64,000 bases of DNA from an uncultured Alphaproteobacteria bacterium (GTDB lineage Bacteria > Electryoneota > RPQS01): the NCBI GenBank assembly GCA_964530625.1, contig CAZHAK010000003.1, positions 35,476 through 99,475 on the forward strand, in the 5' to 3' direction. The position numbers and the translations under genes were made by a program. Under the pieces are notes generated by a model that saw nothing but the letters and a program-made list of their open reading frames with translations, did not search any database and was not told the DNA's origin. Shown here in pieces: positions 52,976-64,000 of this stretch; the first letter of the stretch is position 1; each line of letters begins with the position of its first letter.

Positions 52976-54559
52976 TTAAAAACGATATCCCAGCGCGACA
53001 TTCATCAGCGTGACGTCGCGGCCATCGCCGAAGCCTTGCTCAAGCTCAAGCGAAGCATAGGTGCGTCGAGCCAAATCAAAATCGAACATCACGGCAAGCC
53101 ACTGTTGTGACACCGTTGTTGACGTCGTGTTCAATTCATAGTCGTTGGTTCCGCCTTCGACACCGACTCGCAGCCATGTCGCCGCTTCGCGTGAGACAAA
53201 AAGCGAAGGTTGTGTTCCCGTGCTGTACTGCGAATCAAACCAGCGGAATCGTGCAAATATAGAGATTGCGGAAGCGCCGAGACTAGTCGTGCCCAGCCTA
53301 AGCCAACCGCTCGTTGCTTGAGCTTTGTTTCCGTCTCTGTCGCGCAGACCAATTCCTGCTTCAGCAGTATACGATTTCCCAAATCGCGAGTCCAGACTTG
53401 CGCGAAAGCCCTGCCGTTGCGCGCTGTCGAAAAGGCTGTCCGGAATCGTGCGAGTTTCGGCAGTGTAGTAGTTTGTTCGGTTGTCATAGCCTAGTGAAAC
53501 GGATAACTCGCGCGCGAAACTGTAGCGCGCGTCCAACAGCACGGATGCAAGTGTGATGGACGACCCTTCTGCGTCTTTCAACCACCCCCGATTCAAATTG
53601 ATTTCCGTGCTTTCAAACAGCCGTAGCTTGCCGCCGGAAACAAATGAGAGTTGTTGATAGATGAACTCGCGGCTGACTTCACCCTTCAGATAGCGCCCGG
53701 CAAGCGATGCGGTGGTTTGCAAGGATTGTGAATTAGACAACTTCTGTTTGTAGGCAACGAATGCGCCGACTTTGGTCACGTCAGTTTGGATGCGCGTATT
53801 TTGTAAGTCCGGCTCGAGTCCGCCGACGGCGCCGAGTGCGAAACTGTGGTTCAAGTCGTACTTTACGTAGGCTCCGTCCAGATAGCCCATGCCGCGAGTT
53901 TCGCGACGCAGCACTCGTCCCGCGCCCGCCTGAATCGGCTTATCTTTAGGTTCGTAGGCGATGAGCGCCTCATAGATGCGATTTGTTGACGCGCTGCGAT
54001 CGTCACTTGCGCGCATTGTTCGGCGTAGTCTTAAATTTGTCCGTGCAGAGAAATCGCTTCCACCGATTCTTCTGAGCGAGGCGCGTAAGCTCATCGCAGG
54101 TTCGGTATAATCATAATTGACGGCTCCTTGATCATCCTGTATTGTGTACTCAACACCAATTCTGCCTGTCAGTTCATTGGCGTGTCCAATTGTGAACAGT
54201 TCTGTTTGTTGAGCATCTGTCGCTTGTACTGGCATTACTGTTTCGACTTCAGCAGGAACTGGAGCGGCGGATGTCTCAGCTCCAGAGGCGAACACCAGCG
54301 CCACATCGTCCCGCGCAATGATTCCGGCGAGATTCTTCATTTCACATGAAGAAGAATTCTCTGAGACAAAACTGACAATGATGCGAGCGAGTTCTGCTTC
54401 ACCGCGAGAAATGACTACCGAGTCACCAGGCGTAATTCCCGCTGCGCGGCCTGCAGAAAGATAAACCGTTGTCGCTGACACATATTGAACCGTAGTCTTG
54501 ATCTCAACGGCGAACGCTACAGAGATTGATGCAAGTAGAGCTATGAGTGATACTCTCAC
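52976..54559 (-). CDS. outer-membrane beta-barrel protein (candidate porin of the cytochrome cluster)
   Basis: Signal peptide MRVSLIALLASISVAFA and a ~95-aa N-terminal soluble domain. Then long alternating-pattern strands rich in Y/G/R. The terminal sequence ...VALGYRF has the aromatic last residue typical of OMPs. The GTGA start overlaps the upstream cytochrome stop. Confidence 0.7.
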   Translation of the reverse strand: MRVSLIALLASISVAFAVEIKTTVQYVSATTVYLSAGRAAGITPGDSVVISRGEAELARIIVSFVSENSSSCEMKNLAGIIARDDVALVFASGAETSAAPVPAEVETVMPVQATDAQQTELFTIGHANELTGRIGVEYTIQDDQGAVNYDYTEPAMSLRASLRRIGGSDFSARTNLRLRRTMRASDDRSASTNRIYEALIAYEPKDKPIQAGAGRVLRRETRGMGYLDGAYVKYDLNHSFALGAVGGLEPDLQNTRIQTDVTKVGAFVAYKQKLSNSQSLQTTASLAGRYLKGEVSREFIYQQLSFVSGGKLRLFESTEINLNRGWLKDAEGSSITLASVLLDARYSFARELSVSLGYDNRTNYYTAETRTIPDSLFDSAQRQGFRASLDSRFGKSYTAEAGIGLRDRDGNKAQATSGWLRLGTTSLGASAISIFARFRWFDSQYSTGTQPSLFVSREAATWLRVGVEGGTNDYELNTTSTTVSQQWLAVMFDFDLARRTYASLELEQGFGDGRDVTLMNVALGYRF

Positions 54560-58442: not shown

Positions 58443-59027
58443 TTACGGATGAGTTGCAGGCTTTAGTTTAGGCAGCGCCCCGCGCGCGTACAGCGCGAGC
58501 GTGTCCTGCGGATGCAGCTGAATCAATTCAGCCCAGCTTTCACGCGCTGCGTCGTAATTGCCGCGATTAGCTTCTATTGCTCCCAAGTTGTAGAGCGCAC
58601 CTGCGTGACCCGGATGATCTCTTAACATTATCTTCAGCTCGCCGATGGCTTCGTCTGTGCGGCCGAGCGATGCAAGCGAGCGACTGATGTCCAACCGAAC
58701 AAGCCAGCCTTGCCTTGTTGTATCTGTCTTTAGGAATTCACGATAAAACTCAATTGCCTTTTCAAATTGGCCAGATGTGAAGTATAGATTTGCAAGTTCG
58801 AGCGCTATCGGACCATGCCCCGGAGCCGACTTCCACATCTCGAGCATTTGCTCCAAGGCCGGCTTCGCTGTCTGAGTGTGCTCGCGTGACATGGTTTCAA
58901 AACTCTGATCGCCACCCGACTGCGGAGCAGAATAGAGCCACACCAGCAATGCAGGAATAGCAAGCAACGCTATCGCAAACACCACGCGCGTTCTCTTCTG
59001 AGATGTTTGCGGAGACCCGTTACTCAT
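58443..59027 (-). CDS. membrane-anchored periplasmic TPR repeat protein
   Basis: KRTR followed by the TM helix VVFAIALLAIPALLVWLY, then TPR-like repeats (ANLYFTSGQFEKAIEFYREFL, ASLGRTDEAIGELKIML, GAIEANRGNYDAARESWAELI). Confidence 0.8.
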   Translation of the reverse strand: MSNGSPQTSQKRTRVVFAIALLAIPALLVWLYSAPQSGGDQSFETMSREHTQTAKPALEQMLEMWKSAPGHGPIALELANLYFTSGQFEKAIEFYREFLKTDTTRQGWLVRLDISRSLASLGRTDEAIGELKIMLRDHPGHAGALYNLGAIEANRGNYDAARESWAELIQLHPQDTLALYARGALPKLKPATHP

Positions 59028-59030
59028 AGA

Positions 59031-60341
59031 TTAGGCGGATCCAAATTTACGCTCAAATTCAATCCCGATACTCTGCAAGAATTCCGTTGGCAGCACGCCG
59101 CCGATCAAAACAAACACTTGGTCGTTTGTTAGCGTGACTTCTGTGCCCGCTTGATCAAGTACCACTCGCGCAGATTCAATCTGAGTCACATTGGAATTCA
59201 GGAGCAGCGTGACGCGCCCTTCTTCCACGGCTTTTTCGAGTCGCTCGCGATTGCCTTCCTTGATGCGGAAGATTTTATCTCCGCGATATGACAGATGTAC
59301 GGTATTGCCCGCTTGAGTTGAAAGAGCCGTCGCCGCTTCGACCGCGCTGTCACCGCCACCCACGACGAGAATCTTCTTGTGATGATACTTTGCGGGATCA
59401 AGCAGGCGGTAAGTTACCTTGTCGCGCTTTTCACCCGGACAACCAATTTTGCGCGGCGTTCCCCTGCGGCCAATAGCGAGCAATACCTTGCGCGTGACAT
59501 ACTCACCGCCCGAGGTCGTCACTTTGAAATGACCGTTCGTGCGTTCGATACTGATAACGCGTTCACCTTCGTGAATGTCTAGGTCATGTTTCCGCACGAC
59601 ATCGGACAACAGCTGCAGTAAAGGTTCCTTCTCAACCTCTCGCAGCTTCACCGTTCCATGAATCGGAAGCTCCATCGGTTGAAGCATGACGATCTTTTGG
59701 CGAGGATACGTGAAAATTGTCCCACCCAAATCATCCTGATCAACCGTCACATAGTGTAAACCCTGCTTTTTCGCTTGCAACGACGCTGAAATTCCGGCGG
59801 GGCCTGCGCCTACGATGACAAGATCAAGTGCTTCACCAACACGATCTATTTCAATTTGTTTGGAAAGATTTTCAACAGCCTGCCGTCCTTGCGAAACAGC
59901 GTTGCGAATCAAACCCATCCCGCCGAGCTCGCCCGCGATAAATACACCGGGCACATTGGTTTCAAATGTTCCTTTGACGTGCGGAATATCCACGCCGCGC
60001 TGTTCGGTGCCGAACACGAGCGTAATCGCATCCACCGGGCAGGCGCGTTGACACTCTCCGTGACCAATGCAGCGCGCCGGATTTACCAGCGCGGCCTTGC
60101 CATTAATCATTTGCAGAATGCCTTGCTCCGGACAAGCCTTGGTACAGGAGCCTGAGCCGATACAAACATCTGCATCAATCACCGGATGCAGTGAAACAGG
60201 TTGATCGAGTCCGGCCAGTGTGGACTGCTCCAATATAGTAGCCGCTCGTACGCTGCTCTTGCGCGCTCTTAATATGTAGAGTACCGGGAGTCCAACGACC
60301 AACATGCCAGTGACAACATAGATCAGTGTCTCAAGACTCAT
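59031..60341 (-). CDS. membrane-anchored ferredoxin-domain / FAD-NAD(P)-binding oxidoreductase (thioredoxin-reductase-like)
   Basis: N-terminal TM helix followed by RARK. Two Fe-S motifs, CIGSGSCTKACP and CIGHGECQRACP. Dinucleotide folds VIVGAGPAGISASL and ILVVGGGDSAVEAA. Confidence 0.85.
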   Translation of the reverse strand: MSLETLIYVVTGMLVVGLPVLYILRARKSSVRAATILEQSTLAGLDQPVSLHPVIDADVCIGSGSCTKACPEQGILQMINGKAALVNPARCIGHGECQRACPVDAITLVFGTEQRGVDIPHVKGTFETNVPGVFIAGELGGMGLIRNAVSQGRQAVENLSKQIEIDRVGEALDLVIVGAGPAGISASLQAKKQGLHYVTVDQDDLGGTIFTYPRQKIVMLQPMELPIHGTVKLREVEKEPLLQLLSDVVRKHDLDIHEGERVISIERTNGHFKVTTSGGEYVTRKVLLAIGRRGTPRKIGCPGEKRDKVTYRLLDPAKYHHKKILVVGGGDSAVEAATALSTQAGNTVHLSYRGDKIFRIKEGNRERLEKAVEEGRVTLLLNSNVTQIESARVVLDQAGTEVTLTNDQVFVLIGGVLPTEFLQSIGIEFERKFGSA

Positions 60342-60342
60342 G

Positions 60343-61203
60343 TCAGAAAATCCATGTGTAACCGAGTGTGACGGCGACCACGATATGCACCACCATGATA
60401 ATCAGCATAATGACGGCGAACGGTTTATGAAAAACGTGCCAGTGGTGGAGCAGTTTGCGCGCTGTCACCAAAAAAGCAATTCGGCGATCCAACGTAGCGC
60501 GTCTACGAGCGAGTGACACCAGATGCTTCGCGTCGTGCGCGGACAGCCCGGCGTCCTTCTGAAGGTTTGATTTCAATGCGCTGTAGCGGAGAATCGCGGT
60601 CATATCACGCATCAGCCACGTCATCATTCCTGCGCCTGCGTGGACGCTCTCGTTGGCAAACTCTTCAAGCAAATCAAGCGCCTTCGGATTGCCGCCTGCT
60701 TCCGCTGACAGTTGCGAGCGCACTTTGCTTTCGAGTTCCTGGAGTTCTGTCGCAGACATTTCCTCGCCGCTCAAGCTGCGCGGAATTTGCACATAAATAT
60801 ATCTTCCCACAACGCCACTTAGAGCGACTGCAATCATTGACCAAAAGGACACCGCGACAATTCCGCCGAACTTAAAGCTCGTATGAAACAGCACCAGTAT
60901 CGGCCCGGTCACGCCCATCCAGATGTGATAATTCAGCCAATAGCGGATGTCACCCCAGCCTTGCTGCATCGGGCGCCAACGCTTGCGCAAAGAGTACAGC
61001 AACATGATCACCATCAACGCGCTGCCCACGATGCCTGCGCCGTGCCCGATAAATCCGGACGGCTTCCACTCTTCATGCAAGTCATGTCGAGCGCGCTCCT
61101 GCATGGACAGCGCGTAATATTCGCTGCCGCCGTACGCGAGATAGACTGTCGCCAGCACGGTTAAGCTGTATAAAAATATGAGACTTAGACGATGCAATGA
61201 CAA
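60343..61203 (-). CDS. 5-TM membrane protein with two H-x13-H pairs (putative dihaem b-type electron carrier)
   Basis: TM3 YHIWMGVTGPILVLFHT (H93/H107) and TM5 FHKPFAVIMLIIMVVHIV (H259/H273). A ~110-aa charged loop separates TM4 and TM5. TTG start, uncertain. Confidence 0.65.
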   Translation of the reverse strand: MSLHRLSLIFLYSLTVLATVYLAYGGSEYYALSMQERARHDLHEEWKPSGFIGHGAGIVGSALMVIMLLYSLRKRWRPMQQGWGDIRYWLNYHIWMGVTGPILVLFHTSFKFGGIVAVSFWSMIAVALSGVVGRYIYVQIPRSLSGEEMSATELQELESKVRSQLSAEAGGNPKALDLLEEFANESVHAGAGMMTWLMRDMTAILRYSALKSNLQKDAGLSAHDAKHLVSLARRRATLDRRIAFLVTARKLLHHWHVFHKPFAVIMLIIMVVHIVVAVTLGYTWIF

Positions 61204-61235
61204 AGATATTCAGGGCAAAGACAAAGATATTCAGG
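61199..61235. promoter_or_regulatory. two 16-nt direct repeats phased 21 nt apart at the 5' end of the membrane-protein gene
   Basis: gacaaagatattcagg occurs at 61199-61214 and 61220-61235 (minus strand cctgaatatctttgtc x2), abutting the TTG start. Confidence 0.5.
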
Positions 61236-61600
61236 CGAAGTTAGTAGCAGATAAACTACGACTTTGTGGCTGTTTTTGCAACTGTTTACGGCATCAGATT
61301 ACATTATTGCTGCGCAAAGAAACGTCGCCGTTCGACACAGATATTGTCTTCAACATCCTATTTCAAATGCCGTGCCTGCCACTGAAGCCATAAATTTCAA
61401 AAGATCCACAATACTCCCGTATTCTCACCTAATTTCATAGGGAATTTAGGCGTTCGATTGCTCAATGCCTGTTTGTTGTAGTATGAACTGTGGCCTCGGC
61501 GCCTCATGCGACATTGAGTGTACAATTTGTCAAAGTGCAAAGTCAATAAGAAACCCGAACATATTATCCGGGCTTCCTGCTTTATGGTGTTTATGCAAAT

Positions 61601-62824
61601 CTACTTGTCGCGATGGCAACGCACACATAACGCGCGGTCAGCAGACGCTATCATCAAAGGTTCTGCCGTCCAAGCATGCAGATCATGGCAACTCATGCAA
61701 CTCAGTGGACCACCGCGCACAGGATCAACCAACTCCGGACCCATGGGATGCGCGCCATGATGCTCGTGCTTATGACATTCGACGCATAGCTCTGCAGCAG
61801 GTTTGGTCAAATAACCCGCATTCTCATTGCCATGCGGATCGTGGCATTTCGCGCACGCGTATTTTGCGTGAGGATTGTCGCCGACGGTTTCCACACCCTT
61901 TGACGGATCGTGACATCTGACGCACAGATGTTTCGGCGCGGCGCTGAGCAAACTCTTCTGATCCGCTGCGTGAGGATTGTGGCACATCTCGCAAGCATTA
62001 TCTTCCGTCGCACCGTGCGGCATGTGTTTCGCAAAATGCTCGCCTTCGCTTTCGTGACAGTCACTGCAAACAGACTGAACGGAAGCCTTGAGCGGAAATG
62101 CGCCGCCAACTTGAGCCGCTACGTGACATGCCGCGCAGTCGTTATCGTCGAATGGAGCGTGTTTGTTACTCATCACTAAACCGGGCGCGTCACTTGCATG
62201 AGGATCGTGACATGCCGAGCAGCGCGAACCGATCGGGTCAAAGCTGGCGTGCCGTTCGCGCAACTTCGATTCGTTTCCGTGGCAGGTCATGCACAAGTCG
62301 CTGGTGTTCTTGGTCAATAAGTTGTCGAGGTCGCTGCCGTGAACGTCGTGGCACTTGTAACACTGTCCCACGCGCGCCGGCGCATGTACATTTGATCTCG
62401 CCAACCAATCCCGCACTTCCGTGTGGCAGGTCGCGCATAGCTCCTTGCTTGGCGCATTGAGCAGATTGTTATAATCCGACGCATGAGGATTGTGACAGCG
62501 CGTACATTCACCGCTTTCCACAGGAGCATGTTGATGCGACCTCTGCCGCCATTTTGCAGTTTCTTCGTGACAGCTTGCGCACATGGATCCTTCGCGATCC
62601 ACCAGCAGTTTCTCATGACGCGACGCGTGCGGCGCGTGGCAGGCGCTGCATTCACCGGAATTAAACGGCCCGTGAACGTCCGACTTGTTAAACTCCGTCT
62701 TGATGTCGTCATGACACTCGAGGCACGCGTTGTGCTGGTCAACTTTCGGCAACTCTTTTGCAAACAAGAGTGCGAAGCATGTGAGCGCAAAGGCGGCGAG
62801 CAGAATGAATACGCGGCGCTTCAT
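61601..62824 (-). CDS. multihaem c-type cytochrome, 16 CxxCH motifs
   Basis: Signal/anchor MKRRVFILLAAFALTCFALLFA. 16 CxxCH in 407 aa. Alternating CxxCH.PH(A/G)(S/N) and CxxCH(E/D) motifs (doubled-CXXCH style). Confidence 0.9.
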   Translation of the reverse strand: MKRRVFILLAAFALTCFALLFAKELPKVDQHNACLECHDDIKTEFNKSDVHGPFNSGECSACHAPHASRHEKLLVDREGSMCASCHEETAKWRQRSHQHAPVESGECTRCHNPHASDYNNLLNAPSKELCATCHTEVRDWLARSNVHAPARVGQCYKCHDVHGSDLDNLLTKNTSDLCMTCHGNESKLRERHASFDPIGSRCSACHDPHASDAPGLVMSNKHAPFDDNDCAACHVAAQVGGAFPLKASVQSVCSDCHESEGEHFAKHMPHGATEDNACEMCHNPHAADQKSLLSAAPKHLCVRCHDPSKGVETVGDNPHAKYACAKCHDPHGNENAGYLTKPAAELCVECHKHEHHGAHPMGPELVDPVRGGPLSCMSCHDLHAWTAEPLMIASADRALCVRCHRDK

Positions 62825-64000
62825 CTATTGACTCCTTCCGGTACGGCCACGTGGCAGGAAGCGCAATCACCCGATTCAAACGGCGCATGTTGGTTATTCA
62901 TAAGTAGTCTATCAATGTTTGATCCGTGCGCGTCGTGACACATTGCGCAGTTTATCGCGACTCCGTCCTGATTCAAGTGCGAGGCGCGAAACTCCGGCGT
63001 ATCCGTGTTGTGGCAATCCAAACACAGACCTGGTATCGCGTCAGTCAAGAGCGCCTTGTGTTTGCTCGTGTGCGCCGTATGACAATTCAAACACTCACCA
63101 GCGTTCGCGGGCGGATGTGAGAACGTCGCGTTGCGCGCGCTGTCAATGTCCGCATGACACGTAATGCAAAGGTGCGCCGCTCCGGCCAACAATAAGTTCT
63201 TGTTCGCGCTTTGGTGCGGATCGTGACAGGCCGTGCATTTTCCGTCGGCCACCGGCTGATGTACCGACGTCGCCGTCTTGATGGCGTCGGTGATATCCGA
63301 ATGGCACTCGCCACATGTCGCGGCGGTGGAATTCGTCAATAAACCGTCGTGATTTGAAGCGTGCGCCTGATGGCAATCCAAACACGCGCCATCCACAAAC
63401 GGAGGATGTACGGTGTTCCGTTCGTCCAACTTCATCGTCACAGAATGACAATCCGCGCAAAGTGAGTTGTCCGTGTCGCTCAGTAAGTGTTCGTGCTTCC
63501 CGCCGTGAACGTCGTGGCAGCTTCCGCATTCGCCGCGCAAGAAAGGCTGATGAACATCCTTCTTCGCAAACGAAGACTTCAAATCATCGTGGCAATCCAG
63601 ACACATGTCGCCTTGCCGCTTCAGCAGCAGACCTGCGCGATTCGTGCCGTGAGGATCATGACAGCTCCAACATTTCCCCATGGTGACCGCCGAGTGCGTC
63701 ACAGGTTGCTGAGTCGCCAGCTTGATGTCTTCATGGCACTGTAAACACTGGTCGTTGGATTTCGACTTGAGCAGTTTATCATTCGAGTTGCCGTGACCGT
63801 CATGACACGTCGTGCAGGCGTCACGGGCTGCTGAATGACCGTTAGCCAGTTTGGTCTTGTCAAGCTCTGTCGAGTGGCACTCACCGCAAACCTTCGCGTC
63901 GTCCGCCTTCAACAATGCCTCGGCGTGAGTGGTGTGTGGGTTATGGCATTCTATGCAACATTCGCTTTGTACTGGAGCGTGAGTCAAGTCTCCGTGTTTC
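62821..64000 (-). CDS. multihaem c-type cytochrome (C-terminal part; gene continues past the window end), at least 16 CxxCH
   Basis: The frame is open to position 64000, so the ORF-track Met at 63987 is an internal TTG. 16 CxxCH in the visible 393 codons, with the same doubled-CXXCH pattern. ATGA overlap with the next gene. Confidence 0.9.
   Translation of the reverse strand, partial: KHGDLTHAPVQSECCIECHNPHTTHAEALLKADDAKVCGECHSTELDKTKLANGHSAARDACTTCHDGHGNSNDKLLKSKSNDQCLQCHEDIKLATQQPVTHSAVTMGKCWSCHDPHGTNRAGLLLKRQGDMCLDCHDDLKSSFAKKDVHQPFLRGECGSCHDVHGGKHEHLLSDTDNSLCADCHSVTMKLDERNTVHPPFVDGACLDCHQAHASNHDGLLTNSTAATCGECHSDITDAIKTATSVHQPVADGKCTACHDPHQSANKNLLLAGAAHLCITCHADIDSARNATFSHPPANAGECLNCHTAHTSKHKALLTDAIPGLCLDCHNTDTPEFRASHLNQDGVAINCAMCHDAHGSNIDRLLMNNQHAPFESGDCASCHVAVPEGVNR

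Follow-up and report, generated by a model that had tools for sequence, protein, structure and literature searches.

Gene content and conservation of the cluster

The window, that is, the whole 64,000-nucleotide stretch of DNA that was analysed, carries on its reverse strand the gene of an inner-membrane protein (A) and, after a gap of 1 nt, the gene of a membrane-anchored Fe-S flavoprotein (B), followed by genes for a TPR protein, two multihaem cytochromes c and a candidate outer-membrane barrel (Table 1). The start codon of A is TTG, and homologues spanning 100% of the query support it. Directly 3' of the cytochrome gene upstream of A lies a terminator-like hairpin with a 14-bp stem, and promoter-like boxes come next. 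These elements suggest that A opens its own transcription unit, which fits its place as the first cluster gene in most loci. In almost every locus the gene for the 20-haem cytochrome is found downstream of A/B. The TPR gene is a partly conserved companion of A and B, the third in their module; it adjoins them in loci of Calditrichota-like bacteria, Ignavibacteria and Acidobacteriota, and candidate roles of its product are a periplasmic scaffold or a CcmI-like apocytochrome chaperone. The 527-aa protein matches no Pfam family and has only a faint match to the MtrB/PioB family (TIGR03509, E 0.0083), which makes it a candidate barrel.

Table 1. Coordinates of genes and features of the A/B cluster in the window.
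Feature	Position	Strand	Basis or remark
Terminator-like hairpin (61578-61548) and promoter-like TTGACT-18-TACACT (61546-61517)	61517..61578	-	Consensus matches only
A, inner-membrane protein, 286 aa	60343..61203	-	ORF, five predicted TM helices
TM3 of A, residues 86-107	60883..60948	-	His93 predicted on cytoplasmic side, His107 on periplasmic side
Helical insert of A on the cytoplasmic side, residues 139-252	60448..60789	-	Between TM4 and TM5
TM5 of A, residues 258-281	60361..60432	-	Holds His259 and His273
B, membrane-anchored Fe-S flavoprotein, 436 aa	59031..60341	-	Pfam, PDB matches, model
Ferredoxin-like domain of B, residues 52-110	60012..60188	-	Two Fe-S motifs
Permuted segment of B, residues 111-168	59838..60011	-	Lies ahead of the GxGxxG motif
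Rossmann modules of B	59034..59828	-	FAD, GAGPAG 178-183; NAD(P)H, GGGDSA 328-333
TPR protein, 194 aa, N-terminal membrane anchor	58443..59027	-	Pfam TPR families, weak TPR_CcmH_CycH match
Multihaem cytochrome c, 563 aa	56748..58439	-	20 CXXCH, Sec-type signal; candidate periplasmic wire
Multihaem cytochrome c, 731 aa	54556..56751	-	28 CXXCH; candidate outer or extracellular cytochrome
Candidate outer-membrane barrel, 527 aa	52976..54559	-	Signal peptide, conserved position in other loci

The pairing of A and B, which the first-pass annotation proposed from this locus, recurs across genomes. B lies in the A cluster in 68 of 80 species loci, and the remainder are limited by their edges: 11 of the 12 loci without B end at a contig or locus edge, and the twelfth (L057) reaches only ~550 bp beyond the barrel gene, the position that B takes in the second of two gene orders. 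The linkage is therefore seen in every one of the 80 species loci that is long enough to judge. The two orders are A-B-(TPR)-MHC-MHC-OMP and A-MHC-MHC-OMP-B, and the second indicates that B is kept with the cluster even when it does not adjoin A. Linked A and B genes also occur in Acidobacteriota, reached by a homologue search seeded with the distant A member P0245, in KSB1 and one further genome (both from a B-seeded search), and on a plasmid of the cultured Emticicia oligotrophica DSM 17448, whose A homologue is WP_015031196.1. Hosts of the cluster are Calditrichota-like, FCB-group and Acidobacteriota, most of them organotrophic FCB-group bacteria, and the A/B pair is present in at least 565 species-level genomes and comprises thousands of protein clusters. 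The cluster in the window adjoins genes of two RND systems for heavy-metal efflux and of a metal P-type ATPase, a neighbourhood limited to the two closest relatives among the 80 loci.

Histidine pairs and topology of protein A

Protein A carries the motifs W89-x3-H93-x13-H107 in predicted TM3 and W255-x3-H259-x13-H273 in predicted TM5, together with S129-G-V-V-G133 (SGxxG) in TM4, and its translation contains no Cys. Both H-x13-H pairs noticed at first reading (His93/His107 and His259/His273) were found again in the translation, and they lie in helices three and five of the AlphaFold2 model (pLDDT 88.9, pTM 0.78). The modelled helices span residues 2–31, 51–75, 86–107, 115–138 and 222–283, and hydropathy agrees with five TM helices. 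The sidedness originally assigned by the positive-inside rule from the loop S71-LRKRWRP-78, which is confirmed in the translation, concurs with loop charges in 43 homologues. The loop 73–88 has a mean of 5.4 K+R versus 0.3 D+E, and the loop 27–52 has 2.5 K+R versus 3.4 D+E, in line with H93 and H259 on the cytoplasmic side and H107 and H273 on the periplasmic side. An LHHWH motif (H253, H256) before TM5 is conserved only in the FCB and Acidobacteriota subfamilies. The insert between TM4 and TM5 is basic (mean K+R 20) and is modelled with helices at 151–169, 173–187 and 193–217; we infer that its ~110 residues may form a docking platform for B.

The first-pass annotation had made its reading of A depend on conservation of the four His. 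They are invariant in 43/43 homologues (43–80% identity) and nearly so in the whole A family of 374 members, distant ones included, with H93 in 373/374 and H107 in 374/374 and, among aligned residues, H259 in 360/362 and H273 in 361/364, i.e., in at least 360 of the 374 relatives at each position. W255 is near-invariant in the same family, and the SGxxG residues are kept in 369/374 (S129), 373/374 (G130) and 374/374 (G133). The spacing of the His and their predicted topology fit two trans-membrane bis-His haems, and A is a candidate di-haem-b transmembrane electron carrier.

The signature of A and the idea of two haems b are already published, and the type of protein that A represents is known. 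He et al. (2017; Front Microbiol 8:1584, PMC5566968) described an inner membrane protein (IMP) conserved in PCC3/PCC4 porin-cytochrome clusters, with ~300 aa, five TM helices, two WX3HX13H motifs (TM3 and TM5) and SGXXG (TM4), whose gene accompanies those of a porin-like protein and of very large multihaem cytochromes, periplasmic as well as extracellular; the IMP was proposed to bind two b haems, to move electrons through the inner membrane and, as a quinone-active cytochrome b, to form the quinone link. By that published description, A has the size, the five TM helices, both WX3HX13H motifs, SGXXG, the cytochromes and a candidate barrel. The hosts differ: the PCC3/PCC4 cases are mostly Proteobacteria and iron oxidisers, whereas A is found in Calditrichota-like, FCB and Acidobacteriota hosts. 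He et al. (2017) also list clusters of "MHC + IMP + redox protein" but name no flavoprotein for PCC3, whereas B is a constant member of the cluster here. The A–B linkage, the anatomy of B and the independent flavoprotein partners of distant A homologues go beyond that work.

Membership of A in the NOX/FRE (ferric-reductase-domain) superfamily, which was put forward initially, found little backing. The Pfam family Ferric_reduct (PF01794) scores 24.9 bits on A against a cut-off of 28 and covers residues 56–117 only; it is matched weakly by 25 of 43 A homologues (best E 1e-5), and DUF4405 and Ni_hydr_CYTB are further sub-threshold matches. Searches of PDB sequences with A (phmmer) and with the A family profile returned no relevant chain. 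Foldseek with the model of A gave a best E of 0.23 against the PDB, to unrelated proteins and to none of the solved haem proteins there, and hhalign of A against E. coli MsrQ gave a probability of 0.08%. Such searches have difficulty with membrane folds that are all-helical and contain a large insert, and the negatives therefore weaken NOX/FRE membership, while a remote homology may still exist.

A permuted flavoprotein with two Fe-S motifs

Protein B consists, in order, of an N-terminal TM helix, a ferredoxin-like domain with two Fe-S motifs and a permuted TrxR/YpdA-fold FAD and NAD(P)H module; Pfam assigns Pyr_redox_3 (1.4e-45) and Fer4_10 (3.2e-12, 46.6 bits against a threshold of 25.5). 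The hydrophobic segment covers residues ~5–24 and is followed by R25-A-R-K28. Across 63 homologues, the 17 residues after the helix contain a mean of 6.2 K+R and the N-terminus 0.1, and a twin-arginine motif occurs in 0/63. This pattern places the bulk of B in the cytoplasm, as had been deduced from the single TM helix and RARK, and speaks against a periplasmic flavoprotein, which would have contradicted the proposed role.

The ferredoxin-like domain holds the motifs C60-IG-S63-GS-C66-TKA-C70-P and C91-IG-H94-GE-C97-QRA-C101-P. Compared with a canonical 2x[4Fe-4S] ferredoxin, which has eight Cys in two CxxCxxCxxxCP motifs, B retains six Cys only, with Ser63 and His94 at position II. The CxxSxxCxxxCP and CxxHxxCxxxCP forms read at the outset are present in the translation, and the replacement of the second Cys is fixed in one of the two. 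C60, C66, C70, P71, C91, H94, C97, C101 and P102 are invariant in the 63 homologues, and position 63 is Ser in 35, Cys in 17, Thr in 10 and Val in 1. His94 is thus a fixed feature of B and Ser63 a lineage variant, and the Cys found at this position in 17/63 homologues makes an ordinary or nearly ordinary [4Fe-4S] site likely for cluster 1.

The two dinucleotide folds attributed to B were recovered as GAGPAG at 178, GGGDSA at 328 and a TrxR-like fold by Foldseek. With the model of B (pLDDT 85.2), Foldseek matched Bdr, TrxR and FNR structures at E 1e-25 to 1e-17, Bdr/YpdA on top (E 2e-25, TM 0.67), and the best PDB sequence matches were Bdr 7a7b/7apr (E 5.8e-30) followed by TrxR-like FNRs. B is a circularly permuted TrxR/YpdA-fold flavoprotein. 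Its permuted segment is the counterpart of the C-terminal FAD-binding "GD-type" motif of TrxR/YpdA (ETNVPGVFIAGE), and residues 114–140 align with Bdr 268–294 in the PDB sequence search. When re-permuted, B aligns unbroken to Bdr 4–294, with a gain in score from 107.9 to 115.5 bits. Y352-R353, G178/G180/G183 and G328-G-G-D-S-A333 are invariant in the 63 homologues.

Assignment of B to YpdA/Bdr was rejected: TIGR04018 scores 173.3 bits against an NCBIfam cut-off of 339.9, and GAGPAG has Ala in place of the Cys of GGGPCG. Thioredoxin reductase was rejected likewise, the NADPH domain being devoid of a redox-active CxxC; the CxxC of low-Mr thioredoxin reductase was not found anywhere in B. The sole Cys outside the six of the Fe-S motifs, C301, is Val or Ile in 57/63 homologues. 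Without the TrxR CxxC and the YpdA Cys, and with intact FAD and NAD(P)H motifs besides the Fe-S motifs, B is best read as an electron-transfer flavoprotein rather than a disulfide reductase. It resembles the TrxR-type ferredoxin-NADP+ reductases in its two-Rossmann FAD/NAD(P)H fold and in lacking a redox-active disulfide, and it differs from these, from YpdA/Bdr and from TrxR in its circular permutation, N-terminal TM anchor and fused two-cluster ferredoxin domain.

Proposed electron route and its alternatives

Distant proteobacterial homologues of A have other flavoproteins beside them. Some lie beside a 7-haem cytochrome and a TM-anchored reductase composed of FAD_binding_6, NAD_binding_1 and [2Fe-2S] parts, and a Sphingobium homologue beside a Pyr_redox + cNMP-binding + 4Fe-4S protein and a 10-haem cytochrome. 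With B, one membrane-protein family is accompanied by three architectures of pyridine-nucleotide Fe-S flavoprotein. Several of the proteobacterial three-gene versions lack a barrel gene and are neighbours of multicopper oxidase or copper-resistance genes, and one homologue is annotated as "iron reductase".

The A–B linkage and the independent flavoprotein partners favour a chain from NAD(P)H through FAD, Fe-S and two haems b to multihaem cytochromes. From sequence and models, we consider it rather probable that A and B together act in the inner membrane as an NAD(P)H-fed, quinone-independent input module for a porin-cytochrome conduit of extracellular electron transfer. B, anchored by its single TM helix on the cytoplasmic face, would oxidise NAD(P)H, with NADPH the probable substrate, at an FAD site of the TrxR/YpdA fold that is stripped of redox cysteines, and would relay single electrons via two ferredoxin-type clusters. 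Cluster 1 would be bound by C60/S63/C66/C101 and cluster 2 by C91/H94/C97/C70, the latter being His-ligated and the likely exit site. A would carry two stacked b haems, an inner one on H93 and H259 and an outer one on H107 and H273, and would pass electrons to the 20-haem periplasmic cytochrome and from there to the 28-haem cytochrome, the 527-aa barrel and an extracellular acceptor. The A/B step would be electrogenic, helped by the membrane potential and conserving no energy, and would give organotrophs an NAD(P)+-regenerating electron outlet that bypasses quinones. The outward direction is argued from thermodynamics. That a conduit as costly as one of 48 haems should be entered solely through an NAD(P)H outlet that dissipates energy would be unusual, which counts against the proposal.

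Of the split NOX/FRE-like chain proposed in the first-pass annotation, the wiring remains the likeliest reading, with the A–B linkage and the flavoprotein partners of distant A on its side; NOX/FRE homology could not be demonstrated, and the dehydrogenase has a different fold. A shares with this superfamily (NOX/FRE, bacterial SpNOX, STEAP and MsrQ) the paired His ~13 residues apart on helices three and five, and the proposed A/B chain shares with it the haems stacked across the membrane and a cytoplasmic pyridine-nucleotide flavoprotein that feeds the outside. NOX/FRE proteins have a six-TM core and a fused FNR-fold dehydrogenase, whereas A has five TM helices with the cytoplasmic insert and B is a separate TrxR-fold protein with two Fe-S motifs. 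The acceptor in the superfamily is O2, an Fe(III) chelate or MsrP; for A, a multihaem cytochrome is proposed. Because the fold of B is of TrxR/YpdA and not of FNR type, the chain is NOX-like by analogy only. A passage of PMC12525009 presents MsrQ (YedZ) as a separate membrane haem protein that hands electrons to a periplasmic partner.

In pathway position, from cytoplasmic or membrane pools to periplasmic or extracellular carriers, A/B corresponds to CymA, ImcH, CbcL, CbcBA and the flavin-based Ndh2/EetAB route of Listeria. CymA, ImcH, CbcL, CbcBA and the Listeria route draw on (demethyl)menaquinol and have c-type haems or quinone sites, and di-haem cytochromes b of bacteria are usually quinone-reactive, which counts against a quinone-independent A; A may itself have a quinone site. 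To our knowledge, all characterised routes to outer-membrane conduits start at the quinone pool (CymA, ImcH, CbcL) or use a quinone intermediate (Listeria Ndh2). A is without c-type haem, and its presumed donor would be NAD(P)H, directly via the flavoprotein.

In the strongest alternative, which we regard as unlikely yet worth weighing, A would be a quinol-oxidising or quinone-reducing di-haem cytochrome b, with the conduit fed from the menaquinone pool and B acting as an A-anchored peripheral NAD(P)H:quinone-type dehydrogenase or as a regulatory or repair reductase. The characterised inner-membrane entries CymA, ImcH and CbcL are all quinol dehydrogenases, and the quinone-reactive cytochrome b family Ni_hydr_CYTB is among the weak Pfam matches of A. 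A quinone-fed A is also the published hypothesis for proteins of the same signature (PMC5566968). It leaves unexplained the three kinds of NAD(P)H Fe-S flavoprotein beside the A family, and also why B is separately anchored in the membrane and has an invariant His in its ferredoxin domain; moreover, no quinone-site motif was seen in A in a search that was not rigorous.

We think it improbable that electrons run inward, from low-potential extracellular donors (cathodes, Fe(0) or reduced minerals) through the cytochromes, A and B to NAD(P)+, which would yield reducing power and build membrane potential. The literature describes multihaem conduits as able to transfer electrons reversibly, PCC3 clusters of iron oxidisers contain a membrane protein of the A type (PMC5566968), and A homologues occur, as circumstantial evidence, in Prolixibacteraceae and "Candidatus Electryonea". 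Inward electrons would nevertheless oppose the inside-negative membrane potential and have to reach -320 mV, so that the flow would be feasible only for donors well below -320 mV, and the prevalence of organotrophic FCB-group hosts does not suit it either.

Less probable still is a non-respiratory module that sends reductant to the periplasm or cell surface to detoxify metals, acquire iron or repair oxidative damage, like MsrQ-MsrP and ferric reductases: the metal-efflux genes abutting the cluster, the barrel-free proteobacterial versions near copper-related genes and the "iron reductase" annotation point that way, but the efflux neighbours are confined to two close relatives, and the FCB cluster always comes with cytochromes of the 20- and 28-haem classes and with a barrel protein, a hallmark of trans-outer-membrane conduits that would be excessive for periplasmic repair.

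The NAD(P)H-fed input module thus remains our preferred reading. We give about an even chance to the broader claim, drawn from sequence comparisons, that A/B represents a widespread class of inner-membrane entries to extracellular electron transfer. These would be quinone-independent NAD(P)H:multihaem-cytochrome oxidoreductases, convergent with NADPH oxidases and composed of a di-haem-b membrane protein plus a separate Fe-S flavoprotein, and the membrane protein would have recruited at least three different pyridine-nucleotide Fe-S flavoproteins across phyla. If true, many organotrophic or fermentative FCB-group, Acidobacteriota and proteobacterial lineages could pass NAD(P)H electrons on to minerals or partners with no need of a respiratory chain, the energetics of such clusters would be re-read as redox balancing rather than respiration, and the quinone-based PCC3/PCC4 model in iron oxidisers would need revision. 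FCB-group bacteria such as Ignavibacteria, Bacteroidota and Calditrichota, which have porin-cytochrome clusters, occur in large numbers on anodes and in iron-rich sediments. Engineered cells could also use the pair as a compact module of two genes that connects cytoplasmic NAD(P)H to electrodes, and the presence of the pair on the plasmid of a cultured bacterium, E. oligotrophica DSM 17448, makes the hypothesis directly testable.

Linkage of the A-B gene pair to cytochrome clusters

The candidate inner-membrane protein A and the adjoining membrane-anchored Fe-S flavoprotein B are encoded beside genes for large multihaem cytochromes (Table). Between A and the two 16-haem cytochrome genes upstream lie a hairpin resembling a terminator and a site resembling a promoter. 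Thus, as read from these signals, A is probably the first gene of an 8.2-kb transcription unit ending at 52976. The upstream cytochromes lie outside the conserved cluster, with only weak matches in other genomes, and a 388-aa ORF among them may run past the window end. A 21-nt tandem duplication, CCTGAATATCTTTGTC(T/A)TTGC, holds the TTG start of A in its second copy, and in the first copy an in-frame TTG meets a stop four codons later. The duplication may be recent, or the two copies may form a direct repeat bound by a regulator.

Features at the locus and in compared loci (window positions unless a locus label, L0xx, is given)
Feature	Location	Strand	Remark
A, 286 aa, TTG start	60343-61203	-	ORF
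B, 436 aa	59031-60341	-	ORF; 1 nt downstream of A
TPR protein, 194 aa	58443-59027	-	same strand, past B
Cytochrome c, 563 aa, 20 CXXCH	after TPR gene	-	motif count
Cytochrome c, 731 aa, 28 CXXCH	after 563-aa cytochrome gene	-	motif count
527-aa signal-peptide protein	after 731-aa cytochrome gene	-	no Pfam family; faint MtrB/PioB-family match
Two 16-haem cytochromes	61601-63987	-	upstream of A; many Paired_CXXCH repeats
21-nt tandem duplication	61199-61235	-	two copies
Metal-resistance block	32168-52900	+	ends convergent with barrel gene
Emticicia oligotrophica DSM 17448 plasmid cluster	L081 6884-18682
~255-aa protein, Acidobacteriota	L089 8222-8998; L091 8240-9004
Sphingobium sp. TomMM15 plasmid partner region	L095 13615-16501 and 11087-13612

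Homologues of A are numerous (3344 detected in a 90%-identity collection; 4061 representative clusters at 50% identity), and the named ones among the matches listed are all 'hypothetical protein'. On contigs from one genome per species, at least 565 stretches carry a relative, of which the best 80 were taken for locus comparison. The hosts of these best 80 loci belong to Calditrichota, Ignavibacteriota, Bacteroidota (Saprospiraceae, Prolixibacteraceae, Maribellus), Marinimicrobia, Krumholzibacteria, Latescibacterota, Delongbacteria, and Thermoanaerobaculia. The first-pass annotation had proposed co-occurrence of the two genes as a check, and B is present in 68 of these best 80 loci; 11 of the 12 loci lacking it end before its expected position, and the twelfth (L057) ends ~550 bp past the candidate outer-membrane barrel gene. 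Two gene orders dominate, A-B-(TPR)-MHC-MHC-OMP and A-MHC-MHC-OMP-B (MHC, multihaem cytochrome; OMP, candidate barrel), and some loci place B first, so the association of B with the cluster survives rearrangement. In a divergent Acidobacteriota subfamily the order is MHC-MHC-551aa-258aa-A-B-TPR, and searches seeded with B rather than A gave the same linkage picture. On plasmid pEMTOL02 of Emticicia oligotrophica DSM 17448 the order is ccsA-A-B-cytochrome-cytochrome-hypothetical, with A (WP_015031196.1) annotated as 'hypothetical protein' and B (WP_015031197.1) as 'NAD(P)-binding domain-containing protein'.

The plasmid is 100 kb long, and its host is an aerobic member of the Cytophagales that is in culture. 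Directly ahead of the pair lies a gene for CcsA-type cytochrome c biogenesis (1028 aa), and an ECF sigma factor is near, a context suggesting that the module is mobile and carries its own haem-attachment machinery. In the Acidobacteriota clusters (L089, L091), a conserved protein of ~255 aa, with a signal peptide and no Pfam match, is encoded between the barrel gene and A, and in the database protein P0268 a similar region is apparently fused upstream of an A-like domain.

Architecture of flavoprotein B

The best matches of B are YpdA/Bdr and thioredoxin-reductase-like proteins, and its AlphaFold2 model (pLDDT 85.2) superposes on Bdr (E 2e-25, TM 0.67) and also on TrxR-type ferredoxin-NADP+ reductases. 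The two dinucleotide-binding folds recognized earlier are borne out by GAGPAG and GGGDSA motifs. YpdA has GGGPCG where B has GAGPAG, leaving Ala at the position of YpdA's Cys, and unlike thioredoxin reductase, B has no CxxC, its sole non-cluster Cys not being conserved. Because the catalytic cysteines are absent, a disulfide-reductase role for B, as bacillithiol or thioredoxin reductase, was rejected. The counterpart of the C-terminal FAD motif of Bdr (268-294) lies at residues 114-140 of B, ahead of residues 172-435, which match Bdr 4-271. Moving residues 111-168 behind 436 gave an unbroken alignment with Bdr 4-294 and with TrxRs over almost their whole length, and raised the score from 107.9 to 115.5 bits; judged from these alignments, B is circularly permuted. 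The S-Y-R that follows GGGDSA is invariant and lines up with the Y-R of Bdr, which uses NADPH, and with the HRR of TrxR; this makes NADPH the likelier nucleotide.

The flavin module is preceded by a TM helix and by a ferredoxin-type domain for two clusters (Fer4_10, 46.6 bits). This domain contains the motifs CIGSGSC...CP and CIGHGEC...CP, in which both replacements of the canonical second Cys had been singled out. All 63 homologues keep six Cys, two Pro, and His94, so the histidine replacement holds across the family; the serine is no fixed feature, as the Ser63 position is taken by Cys in 17 and by Thr in 10 of the 63. Following standard ferredoxin wiring, cluster 1 would be bound by C60, S/C63, C66, and C101, and cluster 2 by C91, H94, C97, and C70. 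The invariant His brings to mind the distal clusters with a His ligand at which electrons enter and leave hydrogenases and complex I, and cluster 2 may act in a similar way. The single TM helix of B is followed by RARK, as first described. Its N-terminus is acidic and the stretch after the helix strongly basic by alignment charge counts, and no Tat motif was found in B homologues; thus the redox domains face the cytoplasm, as had been expected for the bulk of the protein.

Membrane protein A and its published relatives

The histidine pairs of A, His93/His107 and His259/His273, have 13 residues between the members of each pair, as the first-pass annotation reported together with the SLRKRWRP loop. 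All that it stated about the two sequences was borne out, and its interpretation was supported in part. All four are invariant in 43 of 43 homologues (43–80% identity) and are kept in 360–374 of 374 family members, very distant ones included. Such conservation in A and in B indicates that the features of both are not due to chance. The AlphaFold2 model of A (pLDDT 88.9) places His93/His107 in the third membrane helix and His259/His273 in the fifth, and alignment charge counts place loop 73-88 and insert 139-252 in the cytoplasm and loop 27-52 outside. Together they agree with the proposed orientation, with H93 and H259 at the cytoplasmic face and H107 and H273 at the periplasmic face.

Kinship of A with NOX, FRE, or MsrQ is a lead rather than a result. 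No Pfam family exceeded its threshold: Ferric_reduct reached 24.9 bits (cut-off 28) over residues 56-117, and DUF4405 matched the last helix faintly. Among the 43 homologues, weak matches fell to Ferric_reduct (25), DUF4405 (26), and Ni_hydr_CYTB (4), models that we take to form one Pfam clan of di-haem cytochromes. Attempts to tie A to a solved haem protein failed: neither phmmer with the A sequence nor the family profile matched any PDB chain, the Foldseek comparison suggested earlier gave nothing significant in the PDB (best matches, F-BAR domains), and hhalign to E. coli MsrQ returned a probability of 0.08%. Thus, homology to NOX, FRE, or MsrQ is not claimed, and the 'NOX/FRE-like' label of the first-pass annotation is valid by analogy only.

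The class of A has been described in print. He et al. 2017 (PMC5566968) reported a 'conserved inner membrane protein' of the porin-cytochrome cluster types PCC3 and PCC4, with ~300 aa and five TM helices, of which TM3 and TM5 each bear WX3HX13H and TM4 bears SGXXG; they likened it to the ferric-reductase domain and suggested that it holds two b haems and exchanges with the quinone pool. A carries the exact signature (W89x3H93x13H107, S129GxxG133, W255x3H259x13H273), and its cluster shares the PCC3 layout, with one large cytochrome in the periplasm, a second that is larger, and a barrel; the Gallionellaceae PCC3 cytochromes have 21–27 and 10–35 haems. The membrane-protein class and the two-haem idea are therefore already published as predictions. 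Supplementary Table 6 of the same paper also lists, uninterpreted, 'MHC + IMP with two HX13H + other redox protein' clusters, and Shi et al. 2014 gave the Ignavibacterium album pcc cluster without remark on A- or B-type genes. Our literature searches for the A-B pair of the FCB group, to which most hosts belong, returned the membrane-protein class only (He et al. 2017). In the literature searched, the constant permuted TM-anchored Fe-S flavoprotein, its invariant His ligand, and the NAD(P)H-flavoprotein partners in three architectures appear to be undescribed. A homologue search for the proteobacterial PCC3 protein (distant seed P0245) reached the Acidobacteriota subfamily instead.

Several A-like proteins are apparent fusions: P0221 and P0247 continue into C-terminal cytochrome c7/c3 domains, P0252 joins fragments of A and B, and long N-terminal extensions occur among P0221, P0247, P0252, P0225, and P0268. 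The cytochrome fusions, if real, would confirm a periplasmic C-terminus. The fusions may have arisen through errors in gene calling or assembly; they were kept out of the evidence.

Proposed electron route from NAD(P)H and its alternatives

Distant relatives of A have other flavoprotein partners. A search of plasmids with tblastn found weak A homologues in Proteobacteria, in which the His pairs and SGxxG are retained. In Alteromonas, Legionella, Methylophaga, Roseomonas, and Acetobacter, the A-like gene lies beside a ~410–640-aa 2Fe-2S/FAD reductase, and its other flank, where annotated, is a c-type cytochrome (7 haems in Alteromonas). The Roseomonas and Alteromonas reductases contain FAD_binding_6, NAD_binding_1, and [2Fe-2S] domains, and the latter is TM-anchored. 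The Sphingobium partner is an 841-aa protein with Pyr_redox, two cNMP-binding, and 4Fe-4S domains, followed by a 10-haem cytochrome. All these loci correspond to the 'other redox protein' clusters of He et al. Three architectures of pyridine-nucleotide Fe-S flavoprotein recur beside one membrane-protein family, and this recurrence, read from gene neighbourhoods, argues most strongly for a link of the family's cytoplasmic partner to NAD(P)H and not to quinones.

The best explanation is that B and A wire NAD(P)H to the cytochromes, as the first-pass annotation had read the pair. Electrons would pass from NAD(P)H to the FAD of B, cluster 1, and the His-ligated cluster 2, then to the inner (H93/H259) and outer (H107/H273) haem b of A, and on through the 20-haem periplasmic cytochrome to the 28-haem cytochrome and barrel and an extracellular acceptor. 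The cofactors and the direction of flow are inferred, as are contact between A and B and quinone independence. Outward transfer through A would carry negative charge outward and leave the proton inside. The membrane potential would therefore drive the step rather than oppose it, and no energy would be conserved. The chain may serve as an outlet that regenerates NAD(P)+, which would fit organotrophs. We give even odds to its being a widespread way, independent of quinones, for NAD(P)H electrons to reach the cytochromes and so enter extracellular electron transfer.

The published model, in which A is quinone-reactive and B would be accessory, is unlikely given the three NAD(P)H-flavoprotein architectures. 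Inward electron uptake through the same chain is a good deal less probable, as it would need donors well under -320 mV. Slightly less probable still is a non-respiratory supply of periplasmic reductant, which would suit the metal-efflux genes beside the window cluster and the copper genes near some proteobacterial versions; however, the metal-efflux neighbourhood is not conserved, and FCB clusters always include giant cytochromes and a barrel. The neighbouring block encodes a Cache/HAMP histidine kinase, a sigma-54 response regulator, a heavy-metal P-type ATPase, a zinc-type alcohol dehydrogenase, and two OEP/HlyD(HMBD)/AcrB-type RND efflux systems. It accompanies the cytochrome cluster in the two closest relatives only, so a conserved association with a metal-efflux island was rejected.

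NAD(P)H-to-cytochrome wiring through B and A remains our preferred reading, and the partner loci show further variation. Six plasmid loci of Roseomonas, Alteromonas, Legionella, Methylophaga, and Acetobacter (L082-L086 and L088) carry a compact three-gene module without a barrel gene, with the 2Fe-2S/FAD reductase and an A-like protein of ~230–250 aa, in one case annotated 'iron reductase'; several include a small c-type cytochrome. The Roseomonas and Legionella fallonii modules adjoin multicopper oxidase or copper-resistance genes, and that of Alteromonas adjoins hydrogenase genes. The Sphingobium partner is TrxR-like with a multi-cluster Fe-S C-terminal region, and a cAMP phosphodiesterase gene follows its 10-haem cytochrome, which hints that this electron outlet may be under cyclic-nucleotide control.
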